A DNA stretch of 64,000 nt. It comes from an uncultured Candidatus Saccharibacteria bacterium. Its GTDB lineage: Bacteria > Patescibacteriota > Saccharimonadia > Saccharimonadales > 2-12-FULL-41-12. The stretch spans positions 26,216 to 90,215 of the forward strand of contig CAYUFM010000001.1 in the NCBI GenBank assembly GCA_964444225.1, in the 5' to 3' direction. Positions 18,420 through 52,725 of the stretch are shown here, piece by piece (position 1 is the first letter of the stretch; every line of letters begins with the position of its first letter). Below the pieces are notes generated by a model. It did no database searches. It was not told where the DNA came from and worked only from the letters and a program-made list of their open reading frames with translations. The position numbers and the translations under genes are program-made.

Positions 18420-18701
18420 ATGGACCCAAATAAAATTGTAGACCAGCGCATTGAGGTAGTCGTTGGCTTTTGGCAAGGTCGACCGGCTAGCCAAATTTGC
18501 GCGCCACTAAAAATGCGCTGGAAAAATAAAGAAATAGTTTTCTCCGAGCTGGGGCTACGCCACCCCACCATGAAAGGCCAACGCATGGTGCATGTTTTTG
18601 ACATGAGCGACGGATATAATGACTACCGCCTAGAATTTGATGCCGAGGCGCTAACCTGGACTCTGGCCGCCATGATGAGCAAGGAGCAAACCTATGATTA
18701 A
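18420..18701 (+). CDS. hypothetical protein (93 aa), translationally coupled to the Y-family polymerase
   Basis: Stop TAA overlaps the ATG of the next gene by 8 nt. No S24 peptidase motifs, so it is not a canonical UmuD. Confidence 0.45.
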   Translation: MDPNKIVDQRIEVVVGFWQGRPASQICAPLKMRWKNKEIVFSELGLRHPTMKGQRMVHVFDMSDGYNDYRLEFDAEALTWTLAAMMSKEQTYD

Positions 18702-19938
18702 TACAGAGGAGCCACGTATTATGTTCATAGACCTCAACAGTGCCTTCGCTACGGCCGAGCAACAGGCTCATCCATCTCTGCGCGGTAGACCGATCGGCGT
18801 TACTAACCGTATTTCTAAATATTGTTGCGTGATTGCTTGTTCTTATGAGGCTAAGGCCTTTGGCATAAAAGTCGGCATGAACTTGCAAGAGGCACTAAAG
18901 ATTGCTCCGGATTTTGTGATGCTAGAAAGCGACCCGCCCAAATATCACTTCGTTTACCAAAAACTGGTCAAAATCATGAGTGATTATTCGCCAAATTTTC
19001 AGATGAAGTCAATAGACGAGGGTATCATCGACTTTCACGGTATGGATTATTTACTAAAAAACCGCACCATGTCAGACATCGGTTATGAGATTAAAAATCG
19101 CGTCAAAGAAGAAGTTGGCAACTACACAACCATCAATGTTGGCATTGCACCTAATCGGTTCCTCGCCAAACAGGCTGCAAACTGGCACAAGCCAAACGGT
19201 CTAGACGTCATAGATCATAACAATTTGCTTCAATACTACGAGGGTATAAAATTAACTGATCTAACCGGCATCGCCAAACGTTTTGAAGCTAGGCTCAAAG
19301 CTAGTAGTATTTTTACTCCTTCGCAGTTTTTTAATGCTTCGGCCGACACACTAAAACGTCACGTTTTTCATAGTGTCATTGGCGAAGATTGGTACAACCG
19401 CTTGCATGGCTGGGAGGTCGATCAACACCCGACTAATCGCGGCCAGGTCGGTCGGCAATTTGTGATGGATGTGCGCACCAGCGATGAAAAAATAATCCTG
19501 CCCCGCTTTCATTACCTGTGCGAAACTACCGGCAAAAAACTACGCCATATTGGCATGAATGCCCGCGGGATTATTGTTTGGGCTAACCTCCAAAACGGCG
19601 AACGCTGGCACGCTCGCACCACATTTACCTACTCTTTTTATACTGATAAACAAATCTACAGCCGGGCAAAAAAAATGTTCGACACTAGACCAAAGCACCT
19701 AATTATTGCGGCGACGGGCATTACTTGTTTTATGCTGGAGCCTTCTAACCGAGACCAACGTAGCTTGTTTGAAGAAATTAACAAAGAAGACCTACTAACC
19801 TTCGCCATAGATGAAATAAATGAACGATATGGTACTTTTATGATTTGTTCACTTAATTCTTTAGAGGGCAAAAAACGCGTCAAACAAAAAATCCCATTCG
19901 GTAGCGTCAATTATTTTGATATCCTCCTAAGGGGCTAG
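18694..19938 (+). CDS. Y-family DNA polymerase (DinB/UmuC-like)
   Basis: IMFIDLNSAFATAE (catalytic Asp), SIDEGIIDF (Asp-Glu pair), GIAPNRFLAKQAANWHKPNG, LTGIAKRFEARL. Aligns motif by motif with E. coli DinB. Confidence 0.8.
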   Translation: MINTEEPRIMFIDLNSAFATAEQQAHPSLRGRPIGVTNRISKYCCVIACSYEAKAFGIKVGMNLQEALKIAPDFVMLESDPPKYHFVYQKLVKIMSDYSPNFQMKSIDEGIIDFHGMDYLLKNRTMSDIGYEIKNRVKEEVGNYTTINVGIAPNRFLAKQAANWHKPNGLDVIDHNNLLQYYEGIKLTDLTGIAKRFEARLKASSIFTPSQFFNASADTLKRHVFHSVIGEDWYNRLHGWEVDQHPTNRGQVGRQFVMDVRTSDEKIILPRFHYLCETTGKKLRHIGMNARGIIVWANLQNGERWHARTTFTYSFYTDKQIYSRAKKMFDTRPKHLIIAATGITCFMLEPSNRDQRSLFEEINKEDLLTFAIDEINERYGTFMICSLNSLEGKKRVKQKIPFGSVNYFDILLRG

Positions 19939-20769
19939 AAAAAGAATCTTATTGCCCCATGGGTCATCAACTTCAATTTTTTGGTTTTTGTCTTGATATT
20001 TATACTCAAACTTTTGTAGCCTGTCAGATAAATTTGCAAGATCGCTACTCTCAGGCAAATGTATATCGAATTCTGCAAGTCCTAGAGCTGGGGTTCTTTT
20101 GCTGGCACCTTGGCTCATCCAGGTATTTGCTCCTATATGATGGTGATAGCCCCCAACAGACAGAAACAGTGCACTAGGCATATCAAACGTTATATCAAAC
20201 CCAAGTATGTCTACATAGAATTTACGTGCAGCAGGTATGTCGCCGACCCGCAAATGAACATGCCCTAGGTGTTTCTCGTCAACAACGCCATTTTTTAGGT
20301 ACTGAGTTATATAGTTCTCAGGGTCGATGTATAAAGTATCCATTGCGATGCGCCCATTGTGCCACTGCCAGTCTTTGCGTGGTCGGTCAAAGTATAGCTC
20401 CAGTCCGTTACCCTCCGGGTCATGAAAATAAAAAGCTTCACTAACCAAATGATCCCCTGTGCCTTCATACAGATGAGGTGCTCGCACAAGTATGTTTTTA
20501 ACTGCTTTTGCTAACTGCGACCGTGACCCATAAACAACCGCGTTGTGAAATAATCCTGCACTAGGCATATGTGCAAATTTTAGGTTAGGCTTCTTTGTTA
20601 ATTTAATTATGGGATTTTTATCAAAACCAAGGATTGTATGGTTGGTAGTTTTATCTAAAATTTCAAACCCCGCGGTATCAGCATAAAAATCTGTCATCTT
20701 AGTTAAATCATTAACAAACAGTTCGGAGGGCGCTAATTTTACATCCTTTGCAAGAATTGATTCTTTCAT
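19927..20769 (-). CDS. VOC family protein (glyoxalase / extradiol-dioxygenase-like, two-domain)
   Basis: HLGHVHLRVGDIPAARKFYVDILGFD and an N-terminal FYADTAGFEIL repeat of the VOC fold. The start is probably the internal Met at 20769 (MKESIL) or further downstream (MTDFYAD). Confidence 0.7.
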   Translation of the reverse strand: MKESILAKDVKLAPSELFVNDLTKMTDFYADTAGFEILDKTTNHTILGFDKNPIIKLTKKPNLKFAHMPSAGLFHNAVVYGSRSQLAKAVKNILVRAPHLYEGTGDHLVSEAFYFHDPEGNGLELYFDRPRKDWQWHNGRIAMDTLYIDPENYITQYLKNGVVDEKHLGHVHLRVGDIPAARKFYVDILGFDITFDMPSALFLSVGGYHHHIGANTWMSQGASKRTPALGLAEFDIHLPESSDLANLSDRLQKFEYKYQDKNQKIEVDDPWGNKILFLAP

Positions 20770-20770
20770 G

Positions 20771-20793
20771 GTCACTATACATTGTATAGTGAC
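20771..20793. promoter_or_regulatory. 23-bp perfect palindrome GTCACTATACA-T-TGTATAGTGAC (putative HxlR-type operator, copy 1)
   Basis: 11-1-11 inverted repeat abutting the VOC gene start. The same sequence recurs at 29310-29332. Confidence 0.5.
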
Positions 20794-20944
20794 TGTACAA
20801 AAAATCAAGTTTATATATAAAATCTTGCAACGAAAAGGCAGGCGAAACGTTTATGATAATTATCACAGTTTTTTGTTGATATGCTTCACAGCTATTTCTC
20901 ATGTTAATGGCTATAGTTAGAGTTGCACGAAGGGAGGTGCAGAT

Positions 20945-21115
20945 ATGAGAAAAAGTAATATAAAAGTGTTACTAAAACAAAGTATCATTAACACCGGTAA
21001 ATCTATCATGAGTTCAGAGACCTACGACCCGCTCTTCCAAAAATATGAGAAAAAGAACATATACAAAGCGCATAAAGTGCCCAAAATTAACATTCGCCAA
21101 CCCAAATATCACTAA
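20945..21115 (+). CDS. small basic protein (56 aa), hypothetical
   Basis: Strong SD AGGGAGGTG 5 nt before the ATG. Lys-rich (MRKSNIKVLLKQ...). Confidence 0.4.
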   Translation: MRKSNIKVLLKQSIINTGKSIMSSETYDPLFQKYEKKNIYKAHKVPKINIRQPKYH

Positions 21116-21127
21116 GGAGGATAGGCT

Positions 21128-21310
21128 ATGTTTTTAGAACTAAAAGTTTACCCTAACGGCAAACTAGTTCAAGACGATAAAATACATGAATCTCGCCAGA
21201 GTATTAAGGCCATACCAACAAAAACCAGGTTAGTCTTTAGCAAGCGCTCGTCACTAAAAAGACATGTGTTTAGCAATGCCCGCAACCATGGGTGGATTAA
21301 CGAGCCCTAA
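21128..21310 (+). CDS. small protein (60 aa), hypothetical
   Basis: Strong SD AAGGAGGA 6 nt before the ATG. Confidence 0.4.
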   Translation: MFLELKVYPNGKLVQDDKIHESRQSIKAIPTKTRLVFSKRSSLKRHVFSNARNHGWINEP

Positions 21311-22898
21311 GCCTAGATAGTAGTCTAGAAATCTCACTACGCCATTCATAGACAGCGTATATTAGTAGTGCTCCAACTATTAATCCAAAAACTACATAGT
21401 TGTTTTTGTTTTTAGTAGACGTGGGTACGTCTGTAACTTTTGCTGAAGCTACTTCACCAACAGCAGTAATTTTACGGCAACGGTTAGTTTCTGGGTTGCG
21501 CTCTTCCCCAGGATCACATGACGTTAATGCCGAAGCAGTATCTGCAAAGGCTCGACACCTGTTTGTTTCAGGATTTCGTTCTTGACCTGCTTTACATGGG
21601 ACCAAACTATCAGTCTGGGCAATTGACCTACACCTATTTGTTGTAGGGTTGCGCTCTTGTCCTGCCTCGCACGGTTTTAGTTCTGAATCTCCACCCGTAC
21701 TAGCAACTTCTTCCGTAAATAAAGAAATCATATTAGCTGAATCTGGAGTTGGCCTATTTGTAAATTGCCAAACATCATTTATTAGTGCCCAAGCCTCGTC
21801 GTCCTCGGGAGAATCGTAAACAGCCGTCTCACTTACAGCGTTGCCTGCTGGCGCAATTAAGCGAACTGAAGCCGAACTGTTAGGCAGGGTTAACTTACTC
21901 AACAAATCACTAAATGTCACATAACTAAACGGATCCAAAAGCCGATTTTCCAATACATAAATCTTTGAGTAGGCCGGTCCTAACTGCAATTTATACCCTT
22001 CTAGCTGTATAGCCTTAGGGTTAGGATTATAAATTTCAATATATTCTTTACCTGTGTCTGTGCTGGACACATTTGGCAAAAGTTCTGTGATGGTTAAAAT
22101 CGAACTTTCCAAAACCACGACCTTTTCTGTGCAGTTCTCACCGTCCAAACTTTCATAACCAGACGGAATTATTGCCTGCAAACCAGCTATGTTGTCACAG
22201 ACGTCTTGCGCGCATTCACCACCAACAAGAAAATAGTCGTCAGGAACAGTCGTCTGCACTCCATCAATATTGGCGCAGACATCAACCAACACTTCCTCTT
22301 CTACGATTCCACTGTTAGGAATTATAGACAAAATAACTGATGTAAAGTCCGTACTATTGTCATTGTTATCTTGCAAAAATTGCACATCGTTTATTTTCTT
22401 ACGCTCAAAGACAGAGCCAGAAGGATATGGTGCAACGGCCACGCCTTCAGGAGACGTCGCTGTGCCCCAACCTAATTTATCGATTTCTATTGCGTCTTTA
22501 TCGTGCAGTCTTATGTGTCCCCCACTAGCAGCCATACCAGAGGTAAAGATTGCATCAGGTATTAACCCAGGGGTTGCAGACACAAACTCCGAGCTCGCAA
22601 AAGTTGCATAGCTAAAGGCAGAGAGCATCAATCGTATATTGTCTGCCGGCGCCTCCAAGCACGCTAATTTTGTCTTGGTAGCATCAGATGCTGACGCGTA
22701 ATAAATACACCAGTCAGTAACATCGATTGGTTCTTCGCTATTGTTATAAATAGACACAAACTCTCTGCTAAGGGCACTACTTTCGCCGGTTTTTACGTGT
22801 CCTAGTACTGGTTTTTCACCAAGCGCAGAAGCAAGATTGCCGCAAATTATTACAGTCGCAACAAACAACGTAAGAAACCTTGTGACCCTCTGAAACAT
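21297..22898 (-). CDS. cell-surface protein with lamin-tail (LTD) domains, Cys-rich repeats and a C-terminal TM anchor
   Basis: Signal peptide; LTD signature TGKEYIEIYNPNPKAIQLEGYKL; three repeats of C.AGQERNP.TNRCR; C-terminal TM FGLIVGALLIYAVY. Confidence 0.6.
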   Translation of the reverse strand: MFQRVTRFLTLFVATVIICGNLASALGEKPVLGHVKTGESSALSREFVSIYNNSEEPIDVTDWCIYYASASDATKTKLACLEAPADNIRLMLSAFSYATFASSEFVSATPGLIPDAIFTSGMAASGGHIRLHDKDAIEIDKLGWGTATSPEGVAVAPYPSGSVFERKKINDVQFLQDNNDNSTDFTSVILSIIPNSGIVEEEVLVDVCANIDGVQTTVPDDYFLVGGECAQDVCDNIAGLQAIIPSGYESLDGENCTEKVVVLESSILTITELLPNVSSTDTGKEYIEIYNPNPKAIQLEGYKLQLGPAYSKIYVLENRLLDPFSYVTFSDLLSKLTLPNSSASVRLIAPAGNAVSETAVYDSPEDDEAWALINDVWQFTNRPTPDSANMISLFTEEVASTGGDSELKPCEAGQERNPTTNRCRSIAQTDSLVPCKAGQERNPETNRCRAFADTASALTSCDPGEERNPETNRCRKITAVGEVASAKVTDVPTSTKNKNNYVVFGLIVGALLIYAVYEWRSEISRLLSRLRAR

Positions 22899-22925
22899 AA
22901 AAAAAGTATAAAAATAAATTGTCTA

Positions 22926-24395
22926 CTAATCAATAATCATTTTGTCTTTTAGAAAATTATGTTTTGTTTTAAACTTTAGCATAATAAGCGTGGCCGTTAT
23001 GCCAATATAACTGATTACGAGAGTCGCAAAACTTATATCCATTTCGCCCGCAACACCAGGAAAAACCGAGATTTTATCGATGACAAAAGTACAATAATTT
23101 AGCAACCAAATTGCTGGGATAGATAAAACTCCAGCCAAAAACGGCAGAAACAAGCCAGCAAGTCCACTAAGAAAAACTGCACCCATAGCCATTGGAATAG
23201 CCGGCAAGACCAGTGCATTGGCAATCAAAGAATAAAATGAGAATGTACCAAAAGAATACAAAAGTATAGGTAGTGTCATTAGCTGAGCCGATAAAGTAGC
23301 TACCAATAATTCACGCAACCACGACGGCTTTTTATCTTTTCCCCAAAAATAATCATGAATTAACGGTGCGAGTATTAACACTCCCACAAAAGCCAGAAAC
23401 GATAAATACCAACCAAGGTCACCCCAAATATAGCTAGGTTTTATCATCAAAGTAATTCCGCCGGCTACAAGCAAAAGTACACCAGGATGAATTTTTCGTC
23501 CATAGTACCAAGCGAGCAGACTCAAGCCCGCAACCAATCCAGCACGTGACATAGACGGGCTAAATCCTGTGACCATAATAAATCCAGCTATCATTCCTCC
23601 AGCCACCAATGCACTAAGATATTTGGAGATCTTGGCAAAAATTTTACGCGCAAAGGCCACTAGAATCGTTAGGTTATAGCCACTAGCAACTACAATGTGT
23701 GATAAGCCTAAAAGTTTGATCTGATTCTGTAGATCTTCTGGTAAATCATTTTTTTGTCCCAGCAAGAAACCTAGACCAAGAGATCTTTGAGGCTCTTCAA
23801 TATTACCAACCGTAGCATTAGCAAAATTATCGCGCACCCGCAGTCCGAGGTCTTGCTGACTTTCTTTAGTGATTTCAACTACATCTGCATTAGACGCGCT
23901 AGCAAAAAAACTTCCAAAGCCTTTGTTGATACCGGTATTTATCTCCACTATGTCACTCCGCTGAATTTTTGCATCATCCCGTGTACTGACCCGAACCTCA
24001 CCGTTTAACAGCGTATTGCCGATAGATACTTTATCTAGCTTAAATCTAACCTCACCGCTTTTTCCATGCGAAATATCATCTACAACTTTTCCTTTTAGAG
24101 TTACGGTTTTACCAATATATGGACTAAAGCTATTTTTACTAAATTCATACGCGCTACTTCGCCAAATCCCGATACAAAAACCAGAGACTAAAATCACCAG
24201 CAAGAAAACTCGCCTGAATTTAAAAATACCCATAATCAACAAACCTAGCCCAATAGCCAGAAAAATATTGTCTTTAAAAATTGCTTCGATAGTATATAAA
24301 CTTGCAACTATTCCTAGGACCAGTCCTATAAAAAAGAAGATCACAAAATAGTAGATATGAACTTTTTCGCTTAGCCACTTTTTTGAGATTTTCAT
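22926..24395 (-). CDS. comEC: DNA internalization competence protein ComEC/Rec2 (no metallo-beta-lactamase domain)
   Basis: N-terminal OB/DUF4131-like region plus a polytopic competence domain (LGLSHIVVASGYNLTIL). The probable start is the internal Met (MKISKK) at about 24395, which is adjacent to the stop of the upstream nuclease gene. Confidence 0.75.
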   Translation of the reverse strand: MKISKKWLSEKVHIYYFVIFFFIGLVLGIVASLYTIEAIFKDNIFLAIGLGLLIMGIFKFRRVFLLVILVSGFCIGIWRSSAYEFSKNSFSPYIGKTVTLKGKVVDDISHGKSGEVRFKLDKVSIGNTLLNGEVRVSTRDDAKIQRSDIVEINTGINKGFGSFFASASNADVVEITKESQQDLGLRVRDNFANATVGNIEEPQRSLGLGFLLGQKNDLPEDLQNQIKLLGLSHIVVASGYNLTILVAFARKIFAKISKYLSALVAGGMIAGFIMVTGFSPSMSRAGLVAGLSLLAWYYGRKIHPGVLLLVAGGITLMIKPSYIWGDLGWYLSFLAFVGVLILAPLIHDYFWGKDKKPSWLRELLVATLSAQLMTLPILLYSFGTFSFYSLIANALVLPAIPMAMGAVFLSGLAGLFLPFLAGVLSIPAIWLLNYCTFVIDKISVFPGVAGEMDISFATLVISYIGITATLIMLKFKTKHNFLKDKMIID

Positions 24396-25120
24396 TCTGA
24401 TACTATTGGTAATTTTTGGTCTGGACAACTGCTTAGCACCCGCTTTATGGCGTCTTTTTCTGCACTCGTTACCCAAAGTTTATATTTAGCCTTAACAGCT
24501 ATTTGGCGCGCAACATATTGGCATCGGTAGCCTTTATTTGGCGGTAGCCAAGAGGCTGCATCGGAGTTGCTTTTGTCCTGGTTGGTCTGACCGTCAACAG
24601 CCAAGAGATTGAGTGCATCGTTAGCAAACAATTCTCTTTGAGCAGGAGTGAGTAGCTGAGCACCTTTTTGCCAAGCATCTGACAAAGCTACAATGTGGTC
24701 TATTTGCACGTCATCACTAGTACCATTGCCTCTTACAAAATTTATAACCTTGCTCGTGTATGGATCACTCAGTGTACCCGATAAAACCGTGCAGTCTGTA
24801 AATGAACGAGTTTTTACGTCCACCAAATCACGCTTTAAAATATAATTACGAGTATCACACCCCACTAATTCTGCCCAACCTTGCCCAAAATGCGAGCGCC
24901 TATAATCACTCTTTGGAGCCCTGCCCTTAACCTCCAGCCTACCCAAAACCTCGCTTGCAATCTCAGAACTAGCACCCAAAACATTACTATCGACAGAACT
25001 AGTACTACTAGTTTGACTTGGAGTAGGTGCGTTGTTTTTAGGGCCATCGATAAACGACATCAATAAGCCAATTAGGCTCAGTATAACTACTACAAAAAAC
25101 CTTCGGCCTCGCTCTGTCAT
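24392..25120 (-). CDS. membrane-anchored extracellular nuclease-like protein (DUF1524 / HNH-like)
   Basis: N-terminal TM, Ser/Thr linker, then IDHIVALSDAW...FANDALNLLAVDGQTNQDKSNSDAASWLPP, typical of DUF1524 excreted-nuclease domains. Confidence 0.55.
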   Translation of the reverse strand: MTERGRRFFVVVILSLIGLLMSFIDGPKNNAPTPSQTSSTSSVDSNVLGASSEIASEVLGRLEVKGRAPKSDYRRSHFGQGWAELVGCDTRNYILKRDLVDVKTRSFTDCTVLSGTLSDPYTSKVINFVRGNGTSDDVQIDHIVALSDAWQKGAQLLTPAQRELFANDALNLLAVDGQTNQDKSNSDAASWLPPNKGYRCQYVARQIAVKAKYKLWVTSAEKDAIKRVLSSCPDQKLPIVSE

Positions 25121-25199
25121 GATTTAATTCTATGTTATTTGACTAGCCATCTAAAATCTTTTCTCAGCTAAAATTAAGTTTCACAGATATAATAAGAAT

Positions 25200-25868
25200 G
25201 TGAGAATATTAATTATTGAAGATGACCACAAGATTGCTGCCGCGCTAAAACGTGGGTTACAGCAAGAAAATTTTGCCGTAGATATAGAGTACGACGGCAC
25301 TAGTGGCTATGGTGCTGCCTCTACTTTGGACTACGACCTTTTAGTGCTAGACAGAATGTTGCCAGAAATGTCAGGTGAGGAAATCTGCCAAAAACTACGT
25401 AAAGAAAATATTCATACCCCAATAATCATGCTTACAGCCAAAGGCGAAATCTCAGACAGAGTTAGCGGACTCAACGCGGGGGCAGATGATTACTTGGTAA
25501 AGCCATTTTCCTTTGAAGAATTGCTTGCTAGAATTCACGCCCTGCTACGACGTCCCAAAAACACAATTACAGATGAGTTGAAAGTCGGTAACCTAACACT
25601 TAACACGTTAAGCTTTTTTGTTAGCCGTGATGACTCCCCTATTCAATTAACTAGTAAGGAATTTGCACTGCTAGAATATCTAATGCGCAACCAAGGCCAA
25701 ATATTATCTAAAGAAAACATTATAGAACATGTCTGGAATTTTGATGCAGACATTTTGCCCAATAATGTTGAGGTCTACATGGGATATTTGCGTAACAAGA
25801 TTGACAAAGGCCACAAGCAAAAGTTGCTTCACACTATCCGCGGATTTGGCTACAAGGTACAGGCATGA
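25200..25868 (+). CDS. OmpR-family response regulator
   Basis: Receiver domain (ILIIEDD, phospho-acceptor Asp in LLVLD) plus winged-helix trans_reg_C. The start appears to be GTG. Confidence 0.9.
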   Translation: MRILIIEDDHKIAAALKRGLQQENFAVDIEYDGTSGYGAASTLDYDLLVLDRMLPEMSGEEICQKLRKENIHTPIIMLTAKGEISDRVSGLNAGADDYLVKPFSFEELLARIHALLRRPKNTITDELKVGNLTLNTLSFFVSRDDSPIQLTSKEFALLEYLMRNQGQILSKENIIEHVWNFDADILPNNVEVYMGYLRNKIDKGHKQKLLHTIRGFGYKVQA

Positions 25869-26866
25869 ATGCAAAACAATTATCACGCTTAAAAGTTAGT
25901 GGCACATACCTCAGCATAGTTATGTTGATGAGCATTATTTTTAGTTTTGCGATTTATCAAATCTCGGACCGAGAGTTATCTCAACAGCGCCGAGTTGAAA
26001 TTCCACACGGTATTCGTGGTTTTATCTCACTCAACGAATTCGATATTCTGCGCCAACAGCAACTAGAACAGTCTCGTGATAATTTAAGGCAAAAATTGAT
26101 TACTTTTAACCTGCTTACCTTGGCTGGTGGGGCGTTTTTAAGTTACTTTCTAGCACTCAGATCTCTAAAACCTATAGAAGACGCCTTGGAAAAACAAGAC
26201 CGCTTCACCAGTGATGCATCGCACGAGATACGAACACCACTAACAGTAATGCGAAGTGAAATTGAAGTTGCCTTACGTGATAAAAAATTCAATTTAACAG
26301 ATGCCAAGAACACCCTTAACAGCAACCTGGAAGAGATCACTAGGTTAGAGGCTCTGACTTCTGGACTATTACAGCTGGCTAAACAAGAAAATAACCCTAA
26401 TCTCAAGCAAACTTTAAAGGCTGGCCAGGTAATTAAGCAAGCGATAGAAAAAACTGGTGCTTTGGCCGACGCAAAGAATCTAAAAATAAAATTCGTAGAA
26501 GCGAAAGACACAGAAGTTTATGCGGAGCCCGGTAGCTTACTCCAACTTATGGTAATACTGCTAGATAACGCCATAAAATATAGCCCAAAAAAGGGCGAAG
26601 TTACGGTCACTACTAAAAATCTGAGAGCCTCTACAGAAATTCGTGTTAAGGACAATGGTCCAGGTATTAACCCTAAAGATCTGCCTCATATCTTTGATAG
26701 ATTCTATAGGTCTGATTCTGCACGCAGTAAATCGGCAGAACAAAACGGCTATGGGCTAGGTCTAGCAATCGCCAAGCAAATCGTTGCATCGCATAGTGGC
26801 GAAATAAATATAAAAAACCTACCAAAGTCTGGCACCCAGGCAACAATTGTATTACCTAAAAAATAA
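25865..26866 (+). CDS. sensor histidine kinase
   Basis: H-box SDASHEIRTPL, N/G boxes DNGPGI...GYGLGLAIAK. The 4-nt overlap with the response regulator gene indicates translational coupling. Confidence 0.85.
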   Translation: MNAKQLSRLKVSGTYLSIVMLMSIIFSFAIYQISDRELSQQRRVEIPHGIRGFISLNEFDILRQQQLEQSRDNLRQKLITFNLLTLAGGAFLSYFLALRSLKPIEDALEKQDRFTSDASHEIRTPLTVMRSEIEVALRDKKFNLTDAKNTLNSNLEEITRLEALTSGLLQLAKQENNPNLKQTLKAGQVIKQAIEKTGALADAKNLKIKFVEAKDTEVYAEPGSLLQLMVILLDNAIKYSPKKGEVTVTTKNLRASTEIRVKDNGPGINPKDLPHIFDRFYRSDSARSKSAEQNGYGLGLAIAKQIVASHSGEINIKNLPKSGTQATIVLPKK

Positions 26867-26895
26867 AACCCGCCTGGGTAAAAAGCGGGTTTTAT
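26866..26895. terminator. bidirectional rho-independent terminator
   Basis: AAACCCGC-loop-GCGGGTTT with A-run and T-run flanks, between convergent genes. Confidence 0.55.
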
Positions 26896-26940
26896 ATTCT
26901 TACGTATGCTGGAAGTTTTATAAATTAACTAAAGTTTATA

Positions 26941-27420
26941 CTAAAAGTTACCTCCATTCATCATGCCGTGTCCGCCCTTGTTATGTCCACCAAACATTAC
27001 AAACGTTTCATCGATACCATTGTCGCTGGCCCATTTTTTGACTTCTTCACGGTGAGCTTCCATTGCAGCACGTCTTTCTTCTGGAGTCTTGTCCTTTAGG
27101 CTATCACGAAAGCCTTCCTGACTTTTTACATATTCAAGAACCTTGGTTTTTTGCTCCTCAGTTAACTTGCCATCCGTAACAGCCTGGCTTAGGCGCTCTT
27201 CAAGCCTAGTTTGCATTTCGGCTTGGCGTTCTGTGTGACGAGCCTCATGCTCCTCGTCAATGACCTTCTGGACTTCGTCCTTATTAATATTGAACTTTGT
27301 AGCTAATTTATCGGCTAAATTAGCACTATCTGTTGCCGCAGAAGCGCTTAGTGCAAACACGCCTCCGCCTAACATAGTAGCCGTCAAAAGACCTGCTACA
27401 ATTAAGTTTTTTTGCTTCAT
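26941..27420 (-). CDS. secreted protein with LTxxQ-like motifs (possible Spy/CpxP-family periplasmic stress protein)
   Basis: Signal peptide, charged helical body with KLTEEQK and TPEERR repeats, Gly/Met-rich tail. Weak family call. Confidence 0.4.
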   Translation of the reverse strand: MKQKNLIVAGLLTATMLGGGVFALSASAATDSANLADKLATKFNINKDEVQKVIDEEHEARHTERQAEMQTRLEERLSQAVTDGKLTEEQKTKVLEYVKSQEGFRDSLKDKTPEERRAAMEAHREEVKKWASDNGIDETFVMFGGHNKGGHGMMNGGNF

Positions 27421-27502
27421 TCATTCCCTTTCTAGTTGCAATTATTGTCGCAACTACCCCTATACTAGACATTAAAACTAAGAATTTCCTGTGAATAGCT
27501 TA

Positions 27503-27934
27503 CTAGCGGGACAAAAAGTTAAGCCAACTATCCAGGTTTTTAGAAAACTGGGATCTTGGCTTTTCAGATTTTACTTTTGCAGTTGATTGATTTGGCATTT
27601 CTATAGTGCGGGCTAGCGCAACTTCTTTAGGCACAATATAAAGTTGCTCGCCTGGTAATGCACGGCCAAACTGCCGGCGAGCAGCTAGTTCCAAGAATTG
27701 GTTGGTTTCATAATATTTATTCTTGAGTTTGAGATTCTCATTCTCTAGACGTGCAATGTCGTTGCGCTGACGAGCCACAGAGATCTTCTTGGCAAGCTCA
27801 TAATTAGTTTGCGCAACCTTTACCCCACTCCAAGTAACCAACAGAACTACAACCCCAAAACCAATAAGCCCCAAGACGCGCACGTCTTGCAACATTTTCA
27901 ACTTTTCACTGTTTTTTTGTATTTTTGTTAGCAT
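27503..27934 (-). CDS. septum formation initiator (FtsB/DivIC-like)
   Basis: Single TM followed by a coiled coil (LENENLKLKNKYYE). Confidence 0.5.
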   Translation of the reverse strand: MLTKIQKNSEKLKMLQDVRVLGLIGFGVVVLLVTWSGVKVAQTNYELAKKISVARQRNDIARLENENLKLKNKYYETNQFLELAARRQFGRALPGEQLYIVPKEVALARTIEMPNQSTAKVKSEKPRSQFSKNLDSWLNFLSR

Positions 27935-28005
27935 AATCAGCTAAAAATATTATAACACTTTAAAATTTCAATGTTAATCTGTTATACTCTATCTGTTGAC
28001 TCCAC

Positions 28006-28081
28006 GGGGGTGTAGCTCAGTGGTTAGAGCAGTCGGCTCATAACCGATTGGTCCCTGGTTCAAGTCCAGGCACCCCCACCA
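28006..28081 (+). tRNA. tRNA (CAU), most similar to tRNA-Ile2 (lysidine-modified) and therefore the likely TilS substrate
   Basis: GGGGGTG-TA-GCTC-AGTGGTTA-GAGC-A-GTCGG-CTCATAA-CCGAT-TGGTC-CCTGG-TTCAAGT-CCAGG-CACCCCC-A-CCA. Near-identical to E. coli tRNA-Ile2 across the D-arm, variable loop and T-arm. Confidence 0.7.
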
Positions 28082-28148
28082 AAAATTAGTAAACAAATAT
28101 CCTTTTAAGCTATAGTTAGTATAAACATAAGCAAAAAAGGATTTTTTT

Positions 28149-28718
28149 ATGAAAAAAATTAATCAAAAAGGTTTTGGGGCAATTGAAGGCTTGCTAGCAG
28201 TTATTGCCGTATCGTTAGTTTTTGGTATTGGGTTTTATGTTGTGAACTCCAACAAAGATAATAAAAAGACTGAAACAACCAATTCAGTCCCTCAAAAATC
28301 TGATGAAAAACTAACCGAGCAACCAAAGATTGAATATATTGAACTTAAGGACCTAGGTGTAAAAATTGAAAAGAACAAAGTAACTGATAAATTTACATTT
28401 ACCCTAATTGCAACAGGCGTTAGTGTAACTTCAAATGAATTAAAAATGCTTGAAGATAAAAACTGCTCTGTTGAGGCAGGTGGAGTAGGCGCTGTTAATT
28501 CGTTAGTAAAAGTTACGGGGACATTTAACCAAGAGGCCAACCCCTTCTCCAGCCTTGTCAAACAATTCTCTAATTTTTTTATTATTAGCAATGGTACCGC
28601 CAATGGCTTTGCCTGCACAGCAGAGTCTGAAGCTTTAGTTAAAGAAGTAAGCGATAAAAGAACAAGTCTTGCATCTGAGCTACAACAAGAATTAAAGAAA
28701 ACTTCGATTATTGAGTAG
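28149..28718 (+). CDS. type IV pilin-like protein
   Basis: Class III signal peptide: KG|FGAIEGLLAVIAVSLVF, with Glu at +5 of the predicted mature N-terminus and a hydrophobic helix. Confidence 0.6.
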   Translation: MKKINQKGFGAIEGLLAVIAVSLVFGIGFYVVNSNKDNKKTETTNSVPQKSDEKLTEQPKIEYIELKDLGVKIEKNKVTDKFTFTLIATGVSVTSNELKMLEDKNCSVEAGGVGAVNSLVKVTGTFNQEANPFSSLVKQFSNFFIISNGTANGFACTAESEALVKEVSDKRTSLASELQQELKKTSIIE

Positions 28719-28719
28719 A

Positions 28720-29277
28720 TTATCTGGAGGTCTTGAGAGTTTGGGCCCACCAGAGTAGGGATTCTGATAGTTTTTCAGCGTTACCACGGACGTTTTCGGG
28801 CTTAACATTACCAGAATCGTCTAACGCGGCCCAGACATCAATCACATTGATAGCCACAGAAGGTAATGGCACCATATTTAGCTGAGCCGTTACCTGAACT
28901 AATTGTTCTATAGCCCTTGCACCGCCCAATGCGCCATAGCCTACAAAGGCAACTGGCTTTTTAGCCCACTCTGCATAGATGGTATCGATCGCATTTTTAA
29001 GCGCCGCGGTATAGCCATGGTTGTACTCGGCGGTTACAAAAATATAACCGTCGAATTCTGAAATCTTCGCAGACCATTTCTTGGTAATTTCGTTTTTATA
29101 ATCTCCCATAGCTGGAAGATTAGGTTCATTGAGTAGTGGCAAGTTCCACTCTTTAAGATCGATAATTTCATACTCTACATCTGTAGATTTAGGCATCTGA
29201 CCTACTGCCCATTTAGCAATACTATTGCCAACACGAACATCACGTACACTCCCAATAATTACTCCAATTTTAACCAT
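28720..29277 (-). CDS. NAD(P)H-dependent FMN reductase / quinone reductase family
   Basis: Flavodoxin-like fold: KIGVIIGSVR...YIFVTAEYNHGYTAALKNAID. Good SD (AGGAG). Confidence 0.8.
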   Translation of the reverse strand: MVKIGVIIGSVRDVRVGNSIAKWAVGQMPKSTDVEYEIIDLKEWNLPLLNEPNLPAMGDYKNEITKKWSAKISEFDGYIFVTAEYNHGYTAALKNAIDTIYAEWAKKPVAFVGYGALGGARAIEQLVQVTAQLNMVPLPSVAINVIDVWAALDDSGNVKPENVRGNAEKLSESLLWWAQTLKTSR

Positions 29278-29309
29278 TTTTATCTCCTTATGATTTAGTT
29301 ATTTTTGAT

Positions 29310-29332
29310 GTCACTATACAATGTATAGTGAC
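29310..29332. promoter_or_regulatory. 23-bp perfect palindrome GTCACTATACA-A-TGTATAGTGAC (putative HxlR-type operator, copy 2)
   Basis: Lies in the divergent intergenic region between the FMN reductase gene and the HxlR-family regulator gene, about 33 nt upstream of the reductase start. Confidence 0.55.
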
Positions 29333-29400
29333 TCTGAATATTAGTATACTAGCAGTCAGTATATAAAGTAAAGTGACTTTGTGATAAAATTGAAATAATT

Positions 29401-29739
29401 ATGAAAAGTACTACTGTAAATCCAATCGTAAACAAAGTAGAGGAAAAGCCTGGTTGCATCCAGGCGGCCCTAGCAATTTTAGGTGACAAATGGTCCCCCC
29501 TTTTACTAGGTAACCTCGTAGAAGAGAGCAAAACCTTCGGTGACTTAAGTGGCGCACTACCAGGCATCAGTCCACGAACACTTAGTGCTCGGCTAGACGG
29601 TCTAGAGGCTTGCGGTATTATTGCCAAAAAAATGTATTGCCAGCATCCCCCACGCTATAAATATGAACTTACAAAAAAAGGCAAAGACTTAAGAGACATC
29701 CTTACCCAGATGGCCACCTGGGGCCAAAAATACAGCTAA
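29401..29739 (+). CDS. HxlR-family (MarR/DUF24-type) transcriptional regulator with N-terminal Cys
   Basis: C..AL.ILGDKWSPLLLGNL...FGDL...ISPRTLSARLDGLEACGII...YELTKKG matches the HxlR winged-helix pattern. Cys at position 19 is analogous to the redox-sensing Cys of YodB-type regulators. Confidence 0.8.
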   Translation: MKSTTVNPIVNKVEEKPGCIQAALAILGDKWSPLLLGNLVEESKTFGDLSGALPGISPRTLSARLDGLEACGIIAKKMYCQHPPRYKYELTKKGKDLRDILTQMATWGQKYS

Positions 29740-30272
29740 TCCGCTTTTCTTCGTCGAGACTTTATGCGATCAAGTGATTCTAGGCATTGTTGACCTGGAT
29801 CTTGTCTCAATATTATCTCAAACTTTTTTCGCTCTTTGGAGTCTGCAAGATTATCAGGACCCACAAATTTTCCAAACCGCCCTCGCAAGGCGCACTCACC
29901 CGCAAAAGGACACACCCTGCAGGCTTTCTCAAAATTGGTTCGTGATATATCTAAGTTAAGTATGTGTCGCTCCTGCACACCAGCGACTCCTTTTACATAC
30001 CCATTCTCTACCGCATCTAATGCAGCATGAGATGCCTGTGCCCTAGCTATGCCTGCCCCTTTTTGACTCCTGTTAAAGAAGTGGAGAGACTCACTTAGGT
30101 GCCTATTCCTGTCTCTTAAAGACGCTTCTTGATCAATAGGAGGAAGATGATCGACAGGATCTTCCGTAGCAGTGTGTGGCCTGATTGGATTGCAATCACC
30201 GAATCCACCTACGATTAAAAGCATTTGGCCTTCTATGCCTGGGTTAGAGGCTGATCGTCGACTTGTTGTCAT
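29736..30272 (-). CDS. hypothetical Cys-containing protein (178 aa), co-transcribed with dus
   Basis: ORF 18 nt downstream of dus; C-terminal CRVCPFAGEC cluster. No confident family assignment. Confidence 0.4.
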   Translation of the reverse strand: MTTSRRSASNPGIEGQMLLIVGGFGDCNPIRPHTATEDPVDHLPPIDQEASLRDRNRHLSESLHFFNRSQKGAGIARAQASHAALDAVENGYVKGVAGVQERHILNLDISRTNFEKACRVCPFAGECALRGRFGKFVGPDNLADSKERKKFEIILRQDPGQQCLESLDRIKSRRRKAD

Positions 30273-30289
30273 GGATATATTATAGCATA

Positions 30290-31249
30290 CTAATTATGGT
30301 TTTGCAAGATATTCAGTGATTCTTCGACTGACTTGGCTTCCATTAGTTTGACTCGCAACTCCCCCGCCCCAGCGAAATTGTTAATGTATATTTTGCAAAA
30401 TTTTTTGATTGTATCAAAACTTCTCTCACGCCCTGGATAAGTTTGCTGAAAAAGCCGTAAATGCCTGATGTATAGCTGGATCTTTTCATCTGGAGAAAGT
30501 TCAGCCCATGGGCTTTTTGGTGCAAACACGTAAGGATCATGAAAGACACCACGCGCAATCATTATGCCGTCATAACAATATTTTTTTGCTAGCTCCTCCG
30601 CCTGGATTCGACTCAGAACATCACCGTTGCCAACTAGCAGAGTCTTGGGCGAAATTTCGTCTCTAAGAATCCTGATTTTTTCAGCAAATTCGCTCCAGCG
30701 AGCCGGAACTTTAGACATTTCCTTAACAGTACGGAAGTGTACAGTCAGCATATCCAAGTTTTGACTTAGTAAAAATTTAATCCACTCTTCATCGAACTCT
30801 TTAAGCCCTATCCGCGTTTTGACACTGATCGGCATTTTACCATCCAGACCTTCTTTTGTGGCCTGGATAATTTCACGGGCACCATCAGGGTATTTGATCA
30901 TTCCACCACCGGCGCCATTACGTACGACCTTCTTGTCTGGACAGCCAAAGTTAAGATCCACCCCAGCGAAGCCCATTTCTGCAAGCTCAGACGCCACTTT
31001 TTGAAAGTTATCAGGATTTTTGCCCCAAATTTGGGCAATAATCGGCCTTTCTGTATCTGCAAAAACAAACCTCCGCATTGCAGATTCGCGACCAGGCGAA
31101 CAAAGTGCTTCTACGTTAACAAACTCTGTAAAAAACAGGTCCGGAGGTACGCAACTAGCAACAATCTGCCGAAAAACAGTTTCGGTCACATCATCCATTG
31201 GTGCCAGCACCATAAATGGCTTAGGTAGATCTAGTAAAATATTTTTCAT
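30290..31249 (-). CDS. dus: tRNA-dihydrouridine synthase
   Basis: TIM-barrel Dus motifs: VLAPMDDVTE, DLNFGCP, catalytic region VKTRIG. Confidence 0.85.
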   Translation of the reverse strand: MKNILLDLPKPFMVLAPMDDVTETVFRQIVASCVPPDLFFTEFVNVEALCSPGRESAMRRFVFADTERPIIAQIWGKNPDNFQKVASELAEMGFAGVDLNFGCPDKKVVRNGAGGGMIKYPDGAREIIQATKEGLDGKMPISVKTRIGLKEFDEEWIKFLLSQNLDMLTVHFRTVKEMSKVPARWSEFAEKIRILRDEISPKTLLVGNGDVLSRIQAEELAKKYCYDGIMIARGVFHDPYVFAPKSPWAELSPDEKIQLYIRHLRLFQQTYPGRERSFDTIKKFCKIYINNFAGAGELRVKLMEAKSVEESLNILQNHN

Positions 31250-45357: not shown

Positions 45358-47085
45358 ATGAGGAAGGCAAGCAAGTTTGGGTTGATAATTATTCTGGTTT
45401 TACTAAGCTTTTTTTACCTTAGAAGTCCCAGTACACCGCCCACTCCCCCAACTACTTATAAGCCTCTGGCCCTACAAAGCATCACAACCTCAAAAATCGA
45501 GACAAATAAAGACCAGGCTTTATTAAAATCTTCAGAAAAAATTACAGAAACCAATCAATTAAGTTCAATTTCAGGCAAACAACCAAAAACCGAAATTGTT
45601 ACTAATGGCACAACTTACCCAAATCGCATATATAGCCCTATGCTAGCGCCAAACGATCCTTCCTACAACCAGTGGTGGGTTGCCCCTAATGATATGACCA
45701 GCGTTTGGGATGTACCTGCCGGGACTTACCAAACTAAAATTGCAGTTATCGACACAGGTTTTGCGCTAAATCATCAGGAGTTTGCTGGTCGCTGGGCTAC
45801 TAACAGTGGCGAGACAGGATTGGCTGTTGGTGAAGAACCAAGTGATCTTAACTGTACTGACCAAGGTCTGCCTCTGGACAGATCTTGCAATAATATTGAT
45901 GATAACTTTGACCAAATTCTAGATAATGAAACTGGCCCAACAACAGAACAAAATCCTTCTGATCGCAACTGTACTGACCAAGGTCTGCCTCTGGACAGAT
46001 CTTGCAATAATATTGATGACGATGGCAATAACTACAAGGATGACGTTACTGGTTGGGATTTTGCTAATTTCGACTCTAGTGTACAAGCCGGGCAAATAAA
46101 CCCCACAGGTAGCGGCACAACACACGGCACAATGGTTGCAGGGATTTTGGGCGCTACAGGCAATAATGGCGTAGGTATTGCAGGCGTTAATTGGCATACA
46201 AAAATCTTGCCAATCCAAGCGCTAGACGACGACAGTTATGGTGACAGTTTTACTGTTGGACAAGCAGTTTACTACGCAGTAGACCAAGGCGCAGATATTA
46301 TTAGCATTAGCCTGGGAACAAGCACAAATGACCCATACATGCGAGCTGCCATACTCTACGCCCTAGACCACGGAACGATCGTCGTTGCATCTACGGGCAA
46401 TAGTGGCTGTGACTGCATATCGTACCCGGCAAACTACCCAGAAGTTGTAGCTGTAGGTGCAGTAAATTCTACTGGTAGCCCTGCGAGTTTTAGCAATTTT
46501 GGGTCACAACTAGATGTCTTGGCCCCTGGTCAGACTATGGCTTCGCCTACCTATACATCAGGCAACCAGGTAAGTGCTTACGCGAGCAATATTGCAGGCA
46601 CTTCATTTTCTACGCCCTTCTTTAGCGGAGTCTTAGGACTAGCTAAAATGTCACAACCAACCGCATCTTGGGAAGAATTAATTGGCGCAATGATGGAGAA
46701 TTCTGACCGTCAGACACTAACATTAACTTCACCACGAACAAACACTCTAGGTTTTGGAGTGACTAGAGTCAATACAATGCTAGACCGCTTGCGTCTTACA
46801 AATTCCGCAATTCAAAGAACCCAATTTAGCGGAACAATACTTGGTTCTAAACTGACCTATCAGTGTGAGGGCGTCACTATACCGGCCACCAGATTATATG
46901 AATTAACAAAATATGGACTTTATAACTACACGACAAACCCACGCGAACTTTCAAAAGCCATACAAAATGGCTGGACTTCAAAAGAAATTGCCTATACCTG
47001 CATTGGACTAGCAAGCGATAATGTTTCTGTTATTAGAAATCTAAGTCTAACTTCAGAGCTTCATAACTTGACCCAAAAGAACTAA
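45358..47085 (+). CDS. subtilisin-like serine protease (peptidase S8)
   Basis: Catalytic triad motifs AVIDTGF (Asp), HGTMVAGILGA (His), GTSFSTPFFSGVLGLA (Ser). Signal/anchor at the N-terminus. Confidence 0.8.
   Translation: MRKASKFGLIIILVLLSFFYLRSPSTPPTPPTTYKPLALQSITTSKIETNKDQALLKSSEKITETNQLSSISGKQPKTEIVTNGTTYPNRIYSPMLAPNDPSYNQWWVAPNDMTSVWDVPAGTYQTKIAVIDTGFALNHQEFAGRWATNSGETGLAVGEEPSDLNCTDQGLPLDRSCNNIDDNFDQILDNETGPTTEQNPSDRNCTDQGLPLDRSCNNIDDDGNNYKDDVTGWDFANFDSSVQAGQINPTGSGTTHGTMVAGILGATGNNGVGIAGVNWHTKILPIQALDDDSYGDSFTVGQAVYYAVDQGADIISISLGTSTNDPYMRAAILYALDHGTIVVASTGNSGCDCISYPANYPEVVAVGAVNSTGSPASFSNFGSQLDVLAPGQTMASPTYTSGNQVSAYASNIAGTSFSTPFFSGVLGLAKMSQPTASWEELIGAMMENSDRQTLTLTSPRTNTLGFGVTRVNTMLDRLRLTNSAIQRTQFSGTILGSKLTYQCEGVTIPATRLYELTKYGLYNYTTNPRELSKAIQNGWTSKEIAYTCIGLASDNVSVIRNLSLTSELHNLTQKN
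45850..46019 (+). repeat. tandem direct repeat inside the S8 protease gene (two exact 53-bp copies, 117-bp period)
   Basis: AACTGTACTGACCAAGGTCTGCCTCTGGACAGATCTTGCAATAATATTGATGA occurs at 45850 and 45967. It encodes NCTDQGLPLDRSCNNIDD twice, between the Asp and His catalytic motifs. Confidence 0.85.
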
Positions 47086-51389: not shown

Positions 51390-52511
51390 TTAACAGCGTT
51401 TTTTAGAGCAACCGCAACTACCGGAAATAGTGGTTTTTGTTACCTTGGTCTTTACATTCTTTGTTCCGCACTCCGGACATGATTTTGAAATAAATTCACA
51501 ATCTTCACTGTCTGTTTTTTTGTCAAAATCACCATAGCCAAGTGCTCTCATCTCTTCTTCGCTGCTTGTTATAGTTACCCCGCAACCACTGTAGGTTCTG
51601 CCCCGTTCTTTGGCTAATCTGCCATAAAATTCCATTTCGGCAGCCGGTGAGATAAATACTAGTTTATTTTCTATAGCAACGATTGCTTGTTGTGGGTATT
51701 TAGATTTTTCTTCAAACCTTGCCTCAATCGTAGCCGCCAAATTTCTTTTGGCACCAGCATCTTTGGATGTTTCTAAGTATTCATTGATTAAGTCAGTTTG
51801 CTTACACGCAAAATCATAGGTATTACGATAGTCTGTTGGATTACGTCCAGCGTACCACTCACCACCAAATTTTTGCATTAATTTATTATCATAAACAGTT
51901 GTTAAAGTATCGGTAAGTTTTGCGTGAAATTTTTCATCAATATCCACACTAATTCTCTGACCTAATAACTCACCGCGCATAGGTGAAACTCCAAAGAATT
52001 CATAAATCGACTCTAGGCCATCTCGGTCGCTTCGATCAAGACTTTGCGAGATCATACTGATGGTACCGTTCAAAGACCGAGTTATTACCCTGAGCATAGT
52101 TTGTTGACGGGTGGTGTTGTACCCGCCAATATCGCTTTTGCCCTGCTTTAGTTCTTCAGGAAAATCAGAGACAACCACCATAGTGTTAGGAGCCTCTGGA
52201 TCTTTGACCATTTCTATCATTTCGAGATACTCGTCCATCTCAATACGTCGCCTACGCAATTCAAAATTAAGTTCTGGTTGATCTAGGACTGTTTGCTCGG
52301 CACTTCTGACTGCTTTTCTAAAAATATCGCCAAGAGGTCGACCGTCCCTTCGAGAAACCAGGTCTTCACCATCATAAATATACTCAAATGGTGTGCGCAT
52401 ATTACCGTCCAAGACTTCTGCAAGCCATGTTGTAGTATCATCAAACTCTGCAGTTTCGTGATTTATGCCTCTTGGATAAAATTCTTTTTTTTCAGCGAGT
52501 GCTAGGCTCAT
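51390..52511 (-). CDS. hypothetical protein with C-terminal Cys4-plus zinc-ribbon-like tail
   Basis: C-terminus CPECGTKNVKTKVTKTTISGSCGCSKKRC. No family recognised. Confidence 0.45.
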   Translation of the reverse strand: MSLALAEKKEFYPRGINHETAEFDDTTTWLAEVLDGNMRTPFEYIYDGEDLVSRRDGRPLGDIFRKAVRSAEQTVLDQPELNFELRRRRIEMDEYLEMIEMVKDPEAPNTMVVVSDFPEELKQGKSDIGGYNTTRQQTMLRVITRSLNGTISMISQSLDRSDRDGLESIYEFFGVSPMRGELLGQRISVDIDEKFHAKLTDTLTTVYDNKLMQKFGGEWYAGRNPTDYRNTYDFACKQTDLINEYLETSKDAGAKRNLAATIEARFEEKSKYPQQAIVAIENKLVFISPAAEMEFYGRLAKERGRTYSGCGVTITSSEEEMRALGYGDFDKKTDSEDCEFISKSCPECGTKNVKTKVTKTTISGSCGCSKKRC

Positions 52512-52603
52512 AAAAATACCCTTCTCATCTCGAGCAAGGGCATATGCTTCTTTGCTCGGAAGACTTTATAGCTGTATCGGACTTTAACCGTTGCGGCACA
52601 GTT

Positions 52604-52618
52604 CCTGAGTTACTCAGG
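52604..52618. promoter_or_regulatory. 15-bp palindrome CCTGAGT-T-ACTCAGG upstream of the 373-aa gene
   Basis: Perfect 7-1-7 inverted repeat, about 95 nt upstream of the start at 52511. There is a second hairpin (CGAGCAA...TTGCTCG) nearby. Confidence 0.3.
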
Positions 52619-52725
52619 ATTCCAGCGTTTTTATTTATTAATGTAGATCAAGTTTAGCACACCACCCATAGTGTGTAAGCCGTAAAAAATACACCACATA
52701 TCGCCTATGAGGCAAAATGTAGTGC

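Follow-up and report, generated by a model that had tools for sequence, protein, structure and literature searches.

The question raised by this locus is whether one short palindrome, found in front of two enzyme genes that lie 8.5 kb apart, joins them into a regulon under a neighboring regulator. The locus is part of a 64-kb stretch of DNA from an uncultured Candidatus Saccharibacteria bacterium (the window), an affiliation that homologues also show. It holds genes for a two-domain VOC protein, an NAD(P)H-dependent flavin mononucleotide (FMN) reductase and an HxlR/DUF24-family regulator with a cysteine at position 19 (Cys19). Comparison across related genomes strongly supports the palindromes as predicted operators for the adjacent HxlR/DUF24-family regulator. 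The regulator probably represses the reductase gene, the VOC gene and its own gene, and would be released by thiol modification of Cys19. The genes and sites are as follows.

19927..20769, minus strand: two-domain VOC (glyoxalase/extradiol-dioxygenase-like) gene; 280 amino acids; Pfam PF00903, 65 bits; no Shine-Dalgarno sequence
20771..20793, no strand: O-voc, perfect 11-1-11 palindrome GTCACTATACATTGTATAGTGAC; 35.4 bits
28720..29277, minus strand: NAD(P)H-dependent FMN reductase gene (predicted quinone/azo-reductase class); 185 amino acids; Pfam PF03358; Shine-Dalgarno sequence AAGGAG at 29284-29289
29310..29332, no strand: O1, perfect palindrome GTCACTATACAATGTATAGTGAC; 35.4 bits
29355..29377, no strand: O2, degenerate copy GTCAGTATATAAAGTAAAGTGAC; weight matrix score 24.5 bits
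29401..29739, plus strand: HxlR/DUF24-family winged-helix regulator gene; 112 amino acids; Pfam PF01638, 82.5 bits; Cys19

Three palindromic sites and their conservation

A pattern search allowing up to three mismatches found GTCACTATACA-N-TGTATAGTGAC exactly twice in the 64 kb, at 20771-20793 and 29310-29332. The two copies are the same at 22 of 22 specified positions and differ in the center base alone, as the original prediction had read from the sequence. Its view that the match was not due to chance agrees with the absence of any match to the 23-bp palindrome pattern in 100 dinucleotide-preserving shuffles. The first copy does abut the VOC gene, ending 1 nt before its start codon, and the second does lie between the divergent reductase and HxlR genes. 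Both exact copies therefore stood, but the number of sites did not, because a third, degenerate one at 29355-29377 had been missed. The 123-bp divergent region holds two sites, O1 and O2. O1 is 32 nt upstream of the reductase ATG, a position kept in orthologous divergons, and O2 lies 45 bp from O1 (start to start), with 23 nt between it and the HxlR ATG. With a matrix built from orthologous sites O2 scored 24.5 bits, compared to a best score of 16.4 bits in 20 shuffles, and nothing else in the window scored 8 bits or more. The sequence around the two exact copies is unrelated and their identity is confined to the palindrome, which rules out a segmental duplication.

Conservation was examined in 80 loci with orthologues of the HxlR regulator, each from a distinct species; the best match among GTDB species-representative genomes was 76% identical. 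A weight matrix was built on the orthologous sites, and its 23-bp consensus was GTnACTWTACWWWGTAWAGTnAC. Of the 44 loci with a regulator about 48% or more identical, 43 had sites of at least 17 bits directly upstream of the HxlR gene; of the 36 more distant ones, 3 did. The divergent partner was FMN_red in 36 loci and an AzoR-like Flavodoxin_2 gene in two. Most of the related loci carry two sites, with a start-to-start spacing of 22 bp in 10 of them and of 41-50 bp in 24, and in most of the orthologous loci the second site ends about 22 nt before the HxlR ATG. Altogether 91 sites were present in 1.2 Mb of related loci, every one at an HxlR or uracil-DNA glycosylase (ung) promoter, and shuffled loci gave none. 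The palindromes thus lie between a regulator and a divergent target and are conserved across species, the layout of an autoregulated divergon, and the link between palindrome and regulator suggested by the original prediction is backed by comparative genomics.

The motif was also found well outside the Saccharibacteria. When 241 million metagenome records were scanned for the degenerate 23-mer, 49 exact matches came back, about 23 of which adjoin an HxlR-family gene. Partners of these HxlR genes include FMN_red and DoxX, the latter in high-GC contigs, as well as a LUD-domain protein and an MFS transporter. Further matches adjoin pirin-like or TrxB-like genes, and others lie inside open reading frames (ORFs) or in surroundings that tell little, as chance would allow. 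Five metagenome contigs of 61-68% GC (L094, L109, L123, L134 and L136) carry the 23-bp motif between HxlR and a divergent DoxX gene. It also adjoins a pirin gene (L104) and occurs where an HxlR gene diverges from an MFS transporter gene (L053 and L112, Limnocylindria) or a LUD-domain gene (L107). The presence of the same motif in high-GC contigs of other phyla suggests that this HxlR subfamily has kept its operator specificity across phyla. An operator motif is thereby defined for one HxlR subfamily, extending to high-GC bacteria with DoxX, pirin and MFS partners. In two metagenome contigs (L100:979-1001 and L138:800-822) exact consensus matches fall within the 5' part of the ruvC coding sequence, which is probably a coding coincidence.

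The regulator, its likely targets and known HxlR systems

All three gene families named in the original prediction were confirmed by Pfam. The regulator matched PF01638 over residues 26-111 with 82.5 bits (cut-off 20.8), which places it in the HxlR family, and 16 solved HxlR-family structures were retrieved from the PDB with E values below 1e-3. The closest was Bacillus subtilis HypR (4a5m, E 5e-16), and Cys19 aligns with its redox-sensing Cys14, in the position of an N-terminal-helix sensing cysteine. HxlR itself was among the significant PDB matches. This residue, singled out in the original prediction, is invariant across 35 regulator orthologues. No equivalent of the second disulfide cysteine of HypR (Cys49) or YodB (Cys101/108) was found in the regulator: the residue aligned with HypR Cys49 is not Cys, and the C-terminus lacks one. 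About two thirds of the orthologues have Cys80, and Cys71 is not conserved. With no second conserved cysteine, the family looks like the one-Cys type represented by QsrR and RrpB. The recognition helix reads GISPRTLSxRL. A contig that matched the regulator exactly was 1.7 kb long.

The reductase matched FMN_red (PF03358) with 123.9 bits against a cut-off of 24. Its closest solved relatives are yeast Lot6p (1t0i, E 4.7e-23), Pseudomonas aeruginosa PA1204 and the B. subtilis azoreductase YhdA, with AzoR also among them, and on this similarity it is assigned to the quinone/azo-reductase class.

No solved structure is close to the VOC protein in sequence. Its AlphaFold model (predicted local distance difference test score, pLDDT, 77) has as best PDB neighbors the two-domain extradiol dioxygenases AphC, DHBD and HPCD with E values of about 1e-13, yet the template-modelling (TM) score is only 0.36 and the identity 18%. 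The curated NCBIfam catechol-dioxygenase models were not passed (TIGR03211, 30 versus 320 bits; HpaD, 47 versus 321). Residues H75, H107, E124, H170, H172 and H209-211 are invariant. The canonical DPxGxxxE glutamate lies in the N-terminal half and not in the C-terminal half, where a 2-His-1-carboxylate site was not found. Because of the low TM score and identity and the failed curated models, we describe the modelled protein as dioxygenase-like and go no further. Orthologues are widespread in Saccharibacteria, under the JGI name 'catechol 2,3-dioxygenase'.

Orthologous loci tie the VOC gene to the module. The motif ends 1 nt before the ATG in VOC orthologues of 76% (L082-84), 69% (L085) and 66% (L141) identity, all of which adjoin the same Y-family polymerase gene, and a 54% identical orthologue has a degenerate copy at the equivalent place. 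The distant orthologues (55-58%) of three other loci have no motif; they lie directly 3' of, or overlap, a paralogous HxlR gene ('HxlR2') whose product is 27% identical to the window regulator and retains the N-terminal Cys.

L086:3650-4849, HxlR2-VOC locus
L142:2027-3849, HxlR2-VOC locus
L143:1961-3849, HxlR2-VOC locus

The HxlR2-VOC operon is divergent from an FMN_red gene in L142 and from an F420_oxidored-like gene in L143. These loci carry upstream palindromes of their own, related to but distinct from the window motif; the one in L086 is a perfect 32-bp palindrome made of CTATACTTTATATAG units. The recurrence of regulator, reductase and VOC in different arrangements argues independently that the two window genes, separated by 8.5 kb, are part of a single HxlR-controlled module. 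The FMN_red/HxlR-VOC and HxlR-VOC loci, together with the orthologous VOC sites, speak for the VOC and FMN reductase genes as likely targets, as had been proposed.

In the window, a Y-family DNA polymerase gene (IMS/ImuB-DinB-like, 414 amino acids; 18420-19938, plus strand) is convergent with the VOC gene, and its 3' end overlaps it by 12 nt. A small ORF of 93 amino acids precedes the polymerase gene, and the pair is syntenic with VOC in L082, L083, L085 and L141.

Several HxlR/DUF24 systems resemble this arrangement. YodB of B. subtilis and QsrR of Staphylococcus aureus have the same Pfam HxlR fold, and their structures (5hs7 and 4hqm) were significant matches for the regulator, with distant sequence similarity (E 1e-10 to 1e-8). 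A conserved N-terminal Cys is common to YodB, QsrR and the window regulator, Cys19 corresponding to YodB Cys6 by alignment offsets, whereas the C-terminal Cys101/108 of YodB has no counterpart. YodB and QsrR use palindromic operators at target promoters, as predicted here; the QsrR operator, GTATA-N5-TATAC, is arranged differently from the present motif. Their reductase is AzoR1, whereas that of the window is of the FMN_red/Lot6p/YhdA type (two related species have the AzoR-like Flavodoxin_2), and the present host differs from theirs in being a candidate phyla radiation (CPR) bacterium with leaderless-type promoters. Quinone reductases, nitroreductases and ring-cleavage dioxygenases all belong to the regulons of QsrR and YodB (PMC6798810). 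The combination of a quinone/azo reductase with a VOC of ring-cleavage-dioxygenase type is repeated here (PMC6798810).

Campylobacter jejuni RrpB is a single-Cys (Cys8) HxlR-like regulator that represses the divergent NADPH-flavin reductase gene nfrA, also binds upstream of its own gene and has been proposed to act through a cysteine redox switch (PMC8765430). As in the window, an HxlR-like regulator is divergent from a flavin reductase gene, but the RrpB inverted repeat, TTATAA-N17-TTATAA, is unlike the motif described here (PMC8765430), and no VOC target of RrpB is known. HypR controls a flavin oxidoreductase and regulates itself, matching the predicted layout, whereas it is a two-Cys activator that forms a Cys14-Cys49' disulfide.

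CatR (YvaP) is a DUF24 repressor of the B. subtilis operon for a DoxX-like protein (CatD) and a catechol-2,3-dioxygenase (CatE). The link to DoxX is shared, since the motif of the window flanks HxlR/DoxX divergons in high-GC contigs, whereas the window VOC falls short of the curated catechol-2,3-dioxygenase model (30 versus 320 bits). CatR and CatE are both mentioned in PMC6798810. No DoxX gene was noticed near the sites of the window, where no search was aimed at DoxX.

Predicted circuit and alternative explanations

Start codons and promoters set the geometry of the model. The VOC start was placed at the ATG at 20769, where the N-termini of 10 orthologues coincide, one of them with a canonical Shine-Dalgarno sequence; the TTG at 20808 was ruled out by the same N-terminal alignment. 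Two putative promoter elements were assigned.

20781..20808, minus strand: putative VOC promoter; -35 TTGATT (20808-20803), 16-nt spacer, -10 TACAAT (20786-20781)
29382..29390, plus strand: putative extended -10 of the HxlR gene, TGATAAAAT; 10 nt before the ATG; no Shine-Dalgarno sequence

The putative VOC -10, from which a 5' untranslated region of about 4-5 nt is predicted, is the center of O-voc, which holds the sole plausible -10 of this gene. Read in the direction of the gene, the operator center of three VOC orthologues forms a perfect TATAAT 11 nt from the ATG. The TATAGT in the operator half is an unlikely -10, being 4 nt from the ATG when 5-11 nt is typical in the window. For the HxlR gene, TGnTAnnnT is kept in most of 25 stacked orthologous upstream regions; the extended -10 follows the HxlR-proximal site by 3-10 nt, the ATG comes 8-10 nt further, and no Shine-Dalgarno sequence is present. 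In the orthologues 16-46 nt separate the reductase operator from the ATG, and the operator precedes the Shine-Dalgarno sequence.

Leaderless-type gene starts are frequent in the window. Among its 57 long ORFs, 15 have a Shine-Dalgarno-like motif and 25 have none but carry TAnnnT (often a perfect TATAAT) 5-11 nt upstream of the start, for example at 30273-30290, 47010-47025 and 62134-62150. The prevailing type of gene start in this Saccharibacterium may therefore be that of leaderless or near-leaderless mRNAs.

In the circuit that we propose, a dimer of the regulator would bind each 23-bp dyad. O1 and O2 would control the reductase gene and the regulator's own gene, and O-voc, 8.5 kb away, the dioxygenase-like VOC gene. 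O2 would occupy the -35/spacer region of the HxlR promoter, and O1 would lie at or just downstream of the reductase promoter. Since the sites overlap the putative core promoters, the protein is most likely a repressor. Modification of Cys19 would free it from DNA, and all three genes would be induced; the modification could be S-alkylation, by quinones or another electrophile, or an oxidation that yields a sulfenate or disulfide. The original prediction had described the locus as a thiol-based electrophile and quinone stress regulon, an interpretation that the comparative evidence supports; the inducer and repression over activation, like binding by the HxlR protein, the thiol switch and the transcription starts, we infer.

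Several observations weigh against this reading. The site count in the source organism covers 64 kb of its genome, and consensus promoter scans were not enriched over shuffles. The regulator had been likened to YodB and CatR; its place in the HxlR family stood, but membership in the YodB/CatR subgroup was not established, and its best NCBIfam match, the RrpB equivalog NF047364, reached 60.2 bits against a curated cut-off of 175. N-terminal cysteines are common in the HxlR family, and that of HxlR itself senses formaldehyde, so the conservation of Cys19 does not identify the signal. The HypR box, GTATCAAAATTGATAC, at -53 to -95, differs from GTnACTWTACWWWGTAWAGTnAC (PMC3351151). Finally, HypR (YybR) activates the flavin-oxidoreductase gene hypO while repressing its own gene (PMC3351151), and RrpA is an activator of mdaB (PMC8765430), so that family membership does not give the sign of regulation.

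These last examples raise the alternative that the wiring is the same and the HxlR protein, when oxidized, activates some or all of its targets, as HypR does at hypO and RrpA at mdaB. HypR is the best PDB match of the regulator, with the dual behavior just cited (PMC3351151), and O2 is upstream of the putative HxlR extended -10, centered near -29. The other two operators are placed differently: the activating site of HypR is at -53 to -95, whereas O-voc abuts the VOC ATG and contains its sole plausible -10, and the reductase operator of the orthologues is 16-46 nt from the ATG; both positions occlude rather than recruit RNA polymerase. We consider activation unlikely. The chances are better, though still well short of even, that the regulon is real and responds to another signal, such as hypochlorite or disulfide stress, reactive nitrogen species, aldehydes or a non-covalent ligand. 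Relatives do sense diamide and NaOCl (HypR) or H2O2, quinones and flavins (RrpA/B), HxlR senses formaldehyde, and the operator before ung in seven species hints at a DNA-damaging oxidant or deaminating stress. However, the partners found across phyla (FMN_red, AzoR-like, dioxygenase-like VOC, DoxX, pirin and TrxB-like proteins) form the classic quinone and electrophile set. The formaldehyde cross-link of HxlR involves a Cys with a Lys two residues on, whereas Cys19 is followed by Ile-Gln and has no such Lys.

It is also conceivable, though very improbable, that a different transcription factor binds the palindrome or that it is a bidirectional promoter element, with the HxlR gene nearby by accident. 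Each half does contain -10-like hexamers (TATACA, TATAGT, TACAAT), and leaderless-type -10 elements near start codons are very common (25 of 57 genes). But conservation exceeds the -10 consensus and reaches the outer GTnAC and ACT/AGT, the motif is dyad-symmetric and occurs in phased pairs, and the remaining 25 or so leaderless-type promoters of the window lack it. Moreover, more than 60 independent loci of several phyla show it together with HxlR genes, whatever the partner gene. Least credible of all is a structural element (an RNA or DNA hairpin, a terminator or an attenuator) or a mobile or dispersed repeat. The perfect 11-bp arms could form a hairpin or cruciform, but the loop would be 1 nt, and neither a T-tract nor a terminator call was found. 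Across the orthologous sites, complementarity of mirrored half-site positions equals the expectation from column frequencies (0.30 versus 0.27 expected at positions 3/21, 0.49 versus 0.48 at positions 7/17), so that pairing at variable positions is as expected by chance. This lack of covariation indicates that what is conserved in each half-site is its sequence and not its ability to pair, which marks a site for a dimeric DNA-binding protein rather than a hairpin. With no Rfam family match at the sites either, a hairpin or riboswitch was ruled out. A dispersed repeat, whose many unrelated copies would have spoken against the original prediction, was likewise ruled out by the three sites in 64 kb, the confinement of all 91 related sites to HxlR and ung promoters and the 49 exact matches in 241 million records. 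Repression by the HxlR protein with release through Cys19 is therefore retained as the preferred explanation.

This type of circuit is already well known in bacteria; it repeats the YodB/QsrR/CatR/RrpB paradigm and leaves it unchanged, and the host here is a little-studied, ultra-small bacterium. Saccharibacteria are episymbionts with few regulators. Transcriptional regulation in these and other CPR bacteria is almost unstudied, and a full-text literature search for HxlR and Saccharibacteria together returned no papers. The locus offers a testable predicted regulator-operator pair, with a 23-bp motif found in more than 40 species, three targets and a candidate sensing Cys, and possibly a handle for a stress reporter in cultivable Saccharibacteria.

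Sites at ung genes and neighboring features

In seven related Saccharibacteria species the operator is located 26-52 nt upstream of the start of ung (PF03167), just upstream of a conserved TTTTGTATACT promoter without a Shine-Dalgarno sequence.

ung operators: L007:2363, L009:4570, L012:3689, L014:6965, L015:9581, L019:11909, L020:2992

In two species (L016 and L021) ung is nearby and the site is absent, and the 64-kb window itself yielded no ung gene. It is unusual for an HxlR-type regulon to include a DNA-repair gene. A broader scenario, which we regard as speculative and on the whole improbable, would make the HxlR protein a conserved master sensor, in the reduced genomes of Saccharibacteria, of exposure to oxidants or electrophiles that may come from the host, with its small regulon rewired between lineages. 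In the same scenario the VOC gene would have moved from an HxlR2-VOC operon to control in trans by the window regulator (HxlR1), through an operator that doubles as a leaderless-type -10, and the operator would have been placed before ung in other lineages, linking base-excision repair directly to the sensing of stress through thiols.

The ORFs on either side of the reductase-HxlR pair, orf178 (29736-30272) and orf189 (28149-28718), were ruled out as members of the module, as they have no Pfam match and are conserved in no related locus. The former (minus strand, 178 amino acids) is convergent with the HxlR gene with a 4-nt overlap, starts 6 nt after a perfect TATAAT and contains a CxxCxxxxxC motif (CRVCPFAGEC). 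It could encode a small redox or metal protein specific to this lineage, or not be a gene. Elsewhere in the window, an AdoCbl-II (cobalamin) riboswitch match at 52565-52641 (minus strand; 43 bits, above the gathering score) lies upstream of an ORF of 373 amino acids at 51390-52511 (minus strand).

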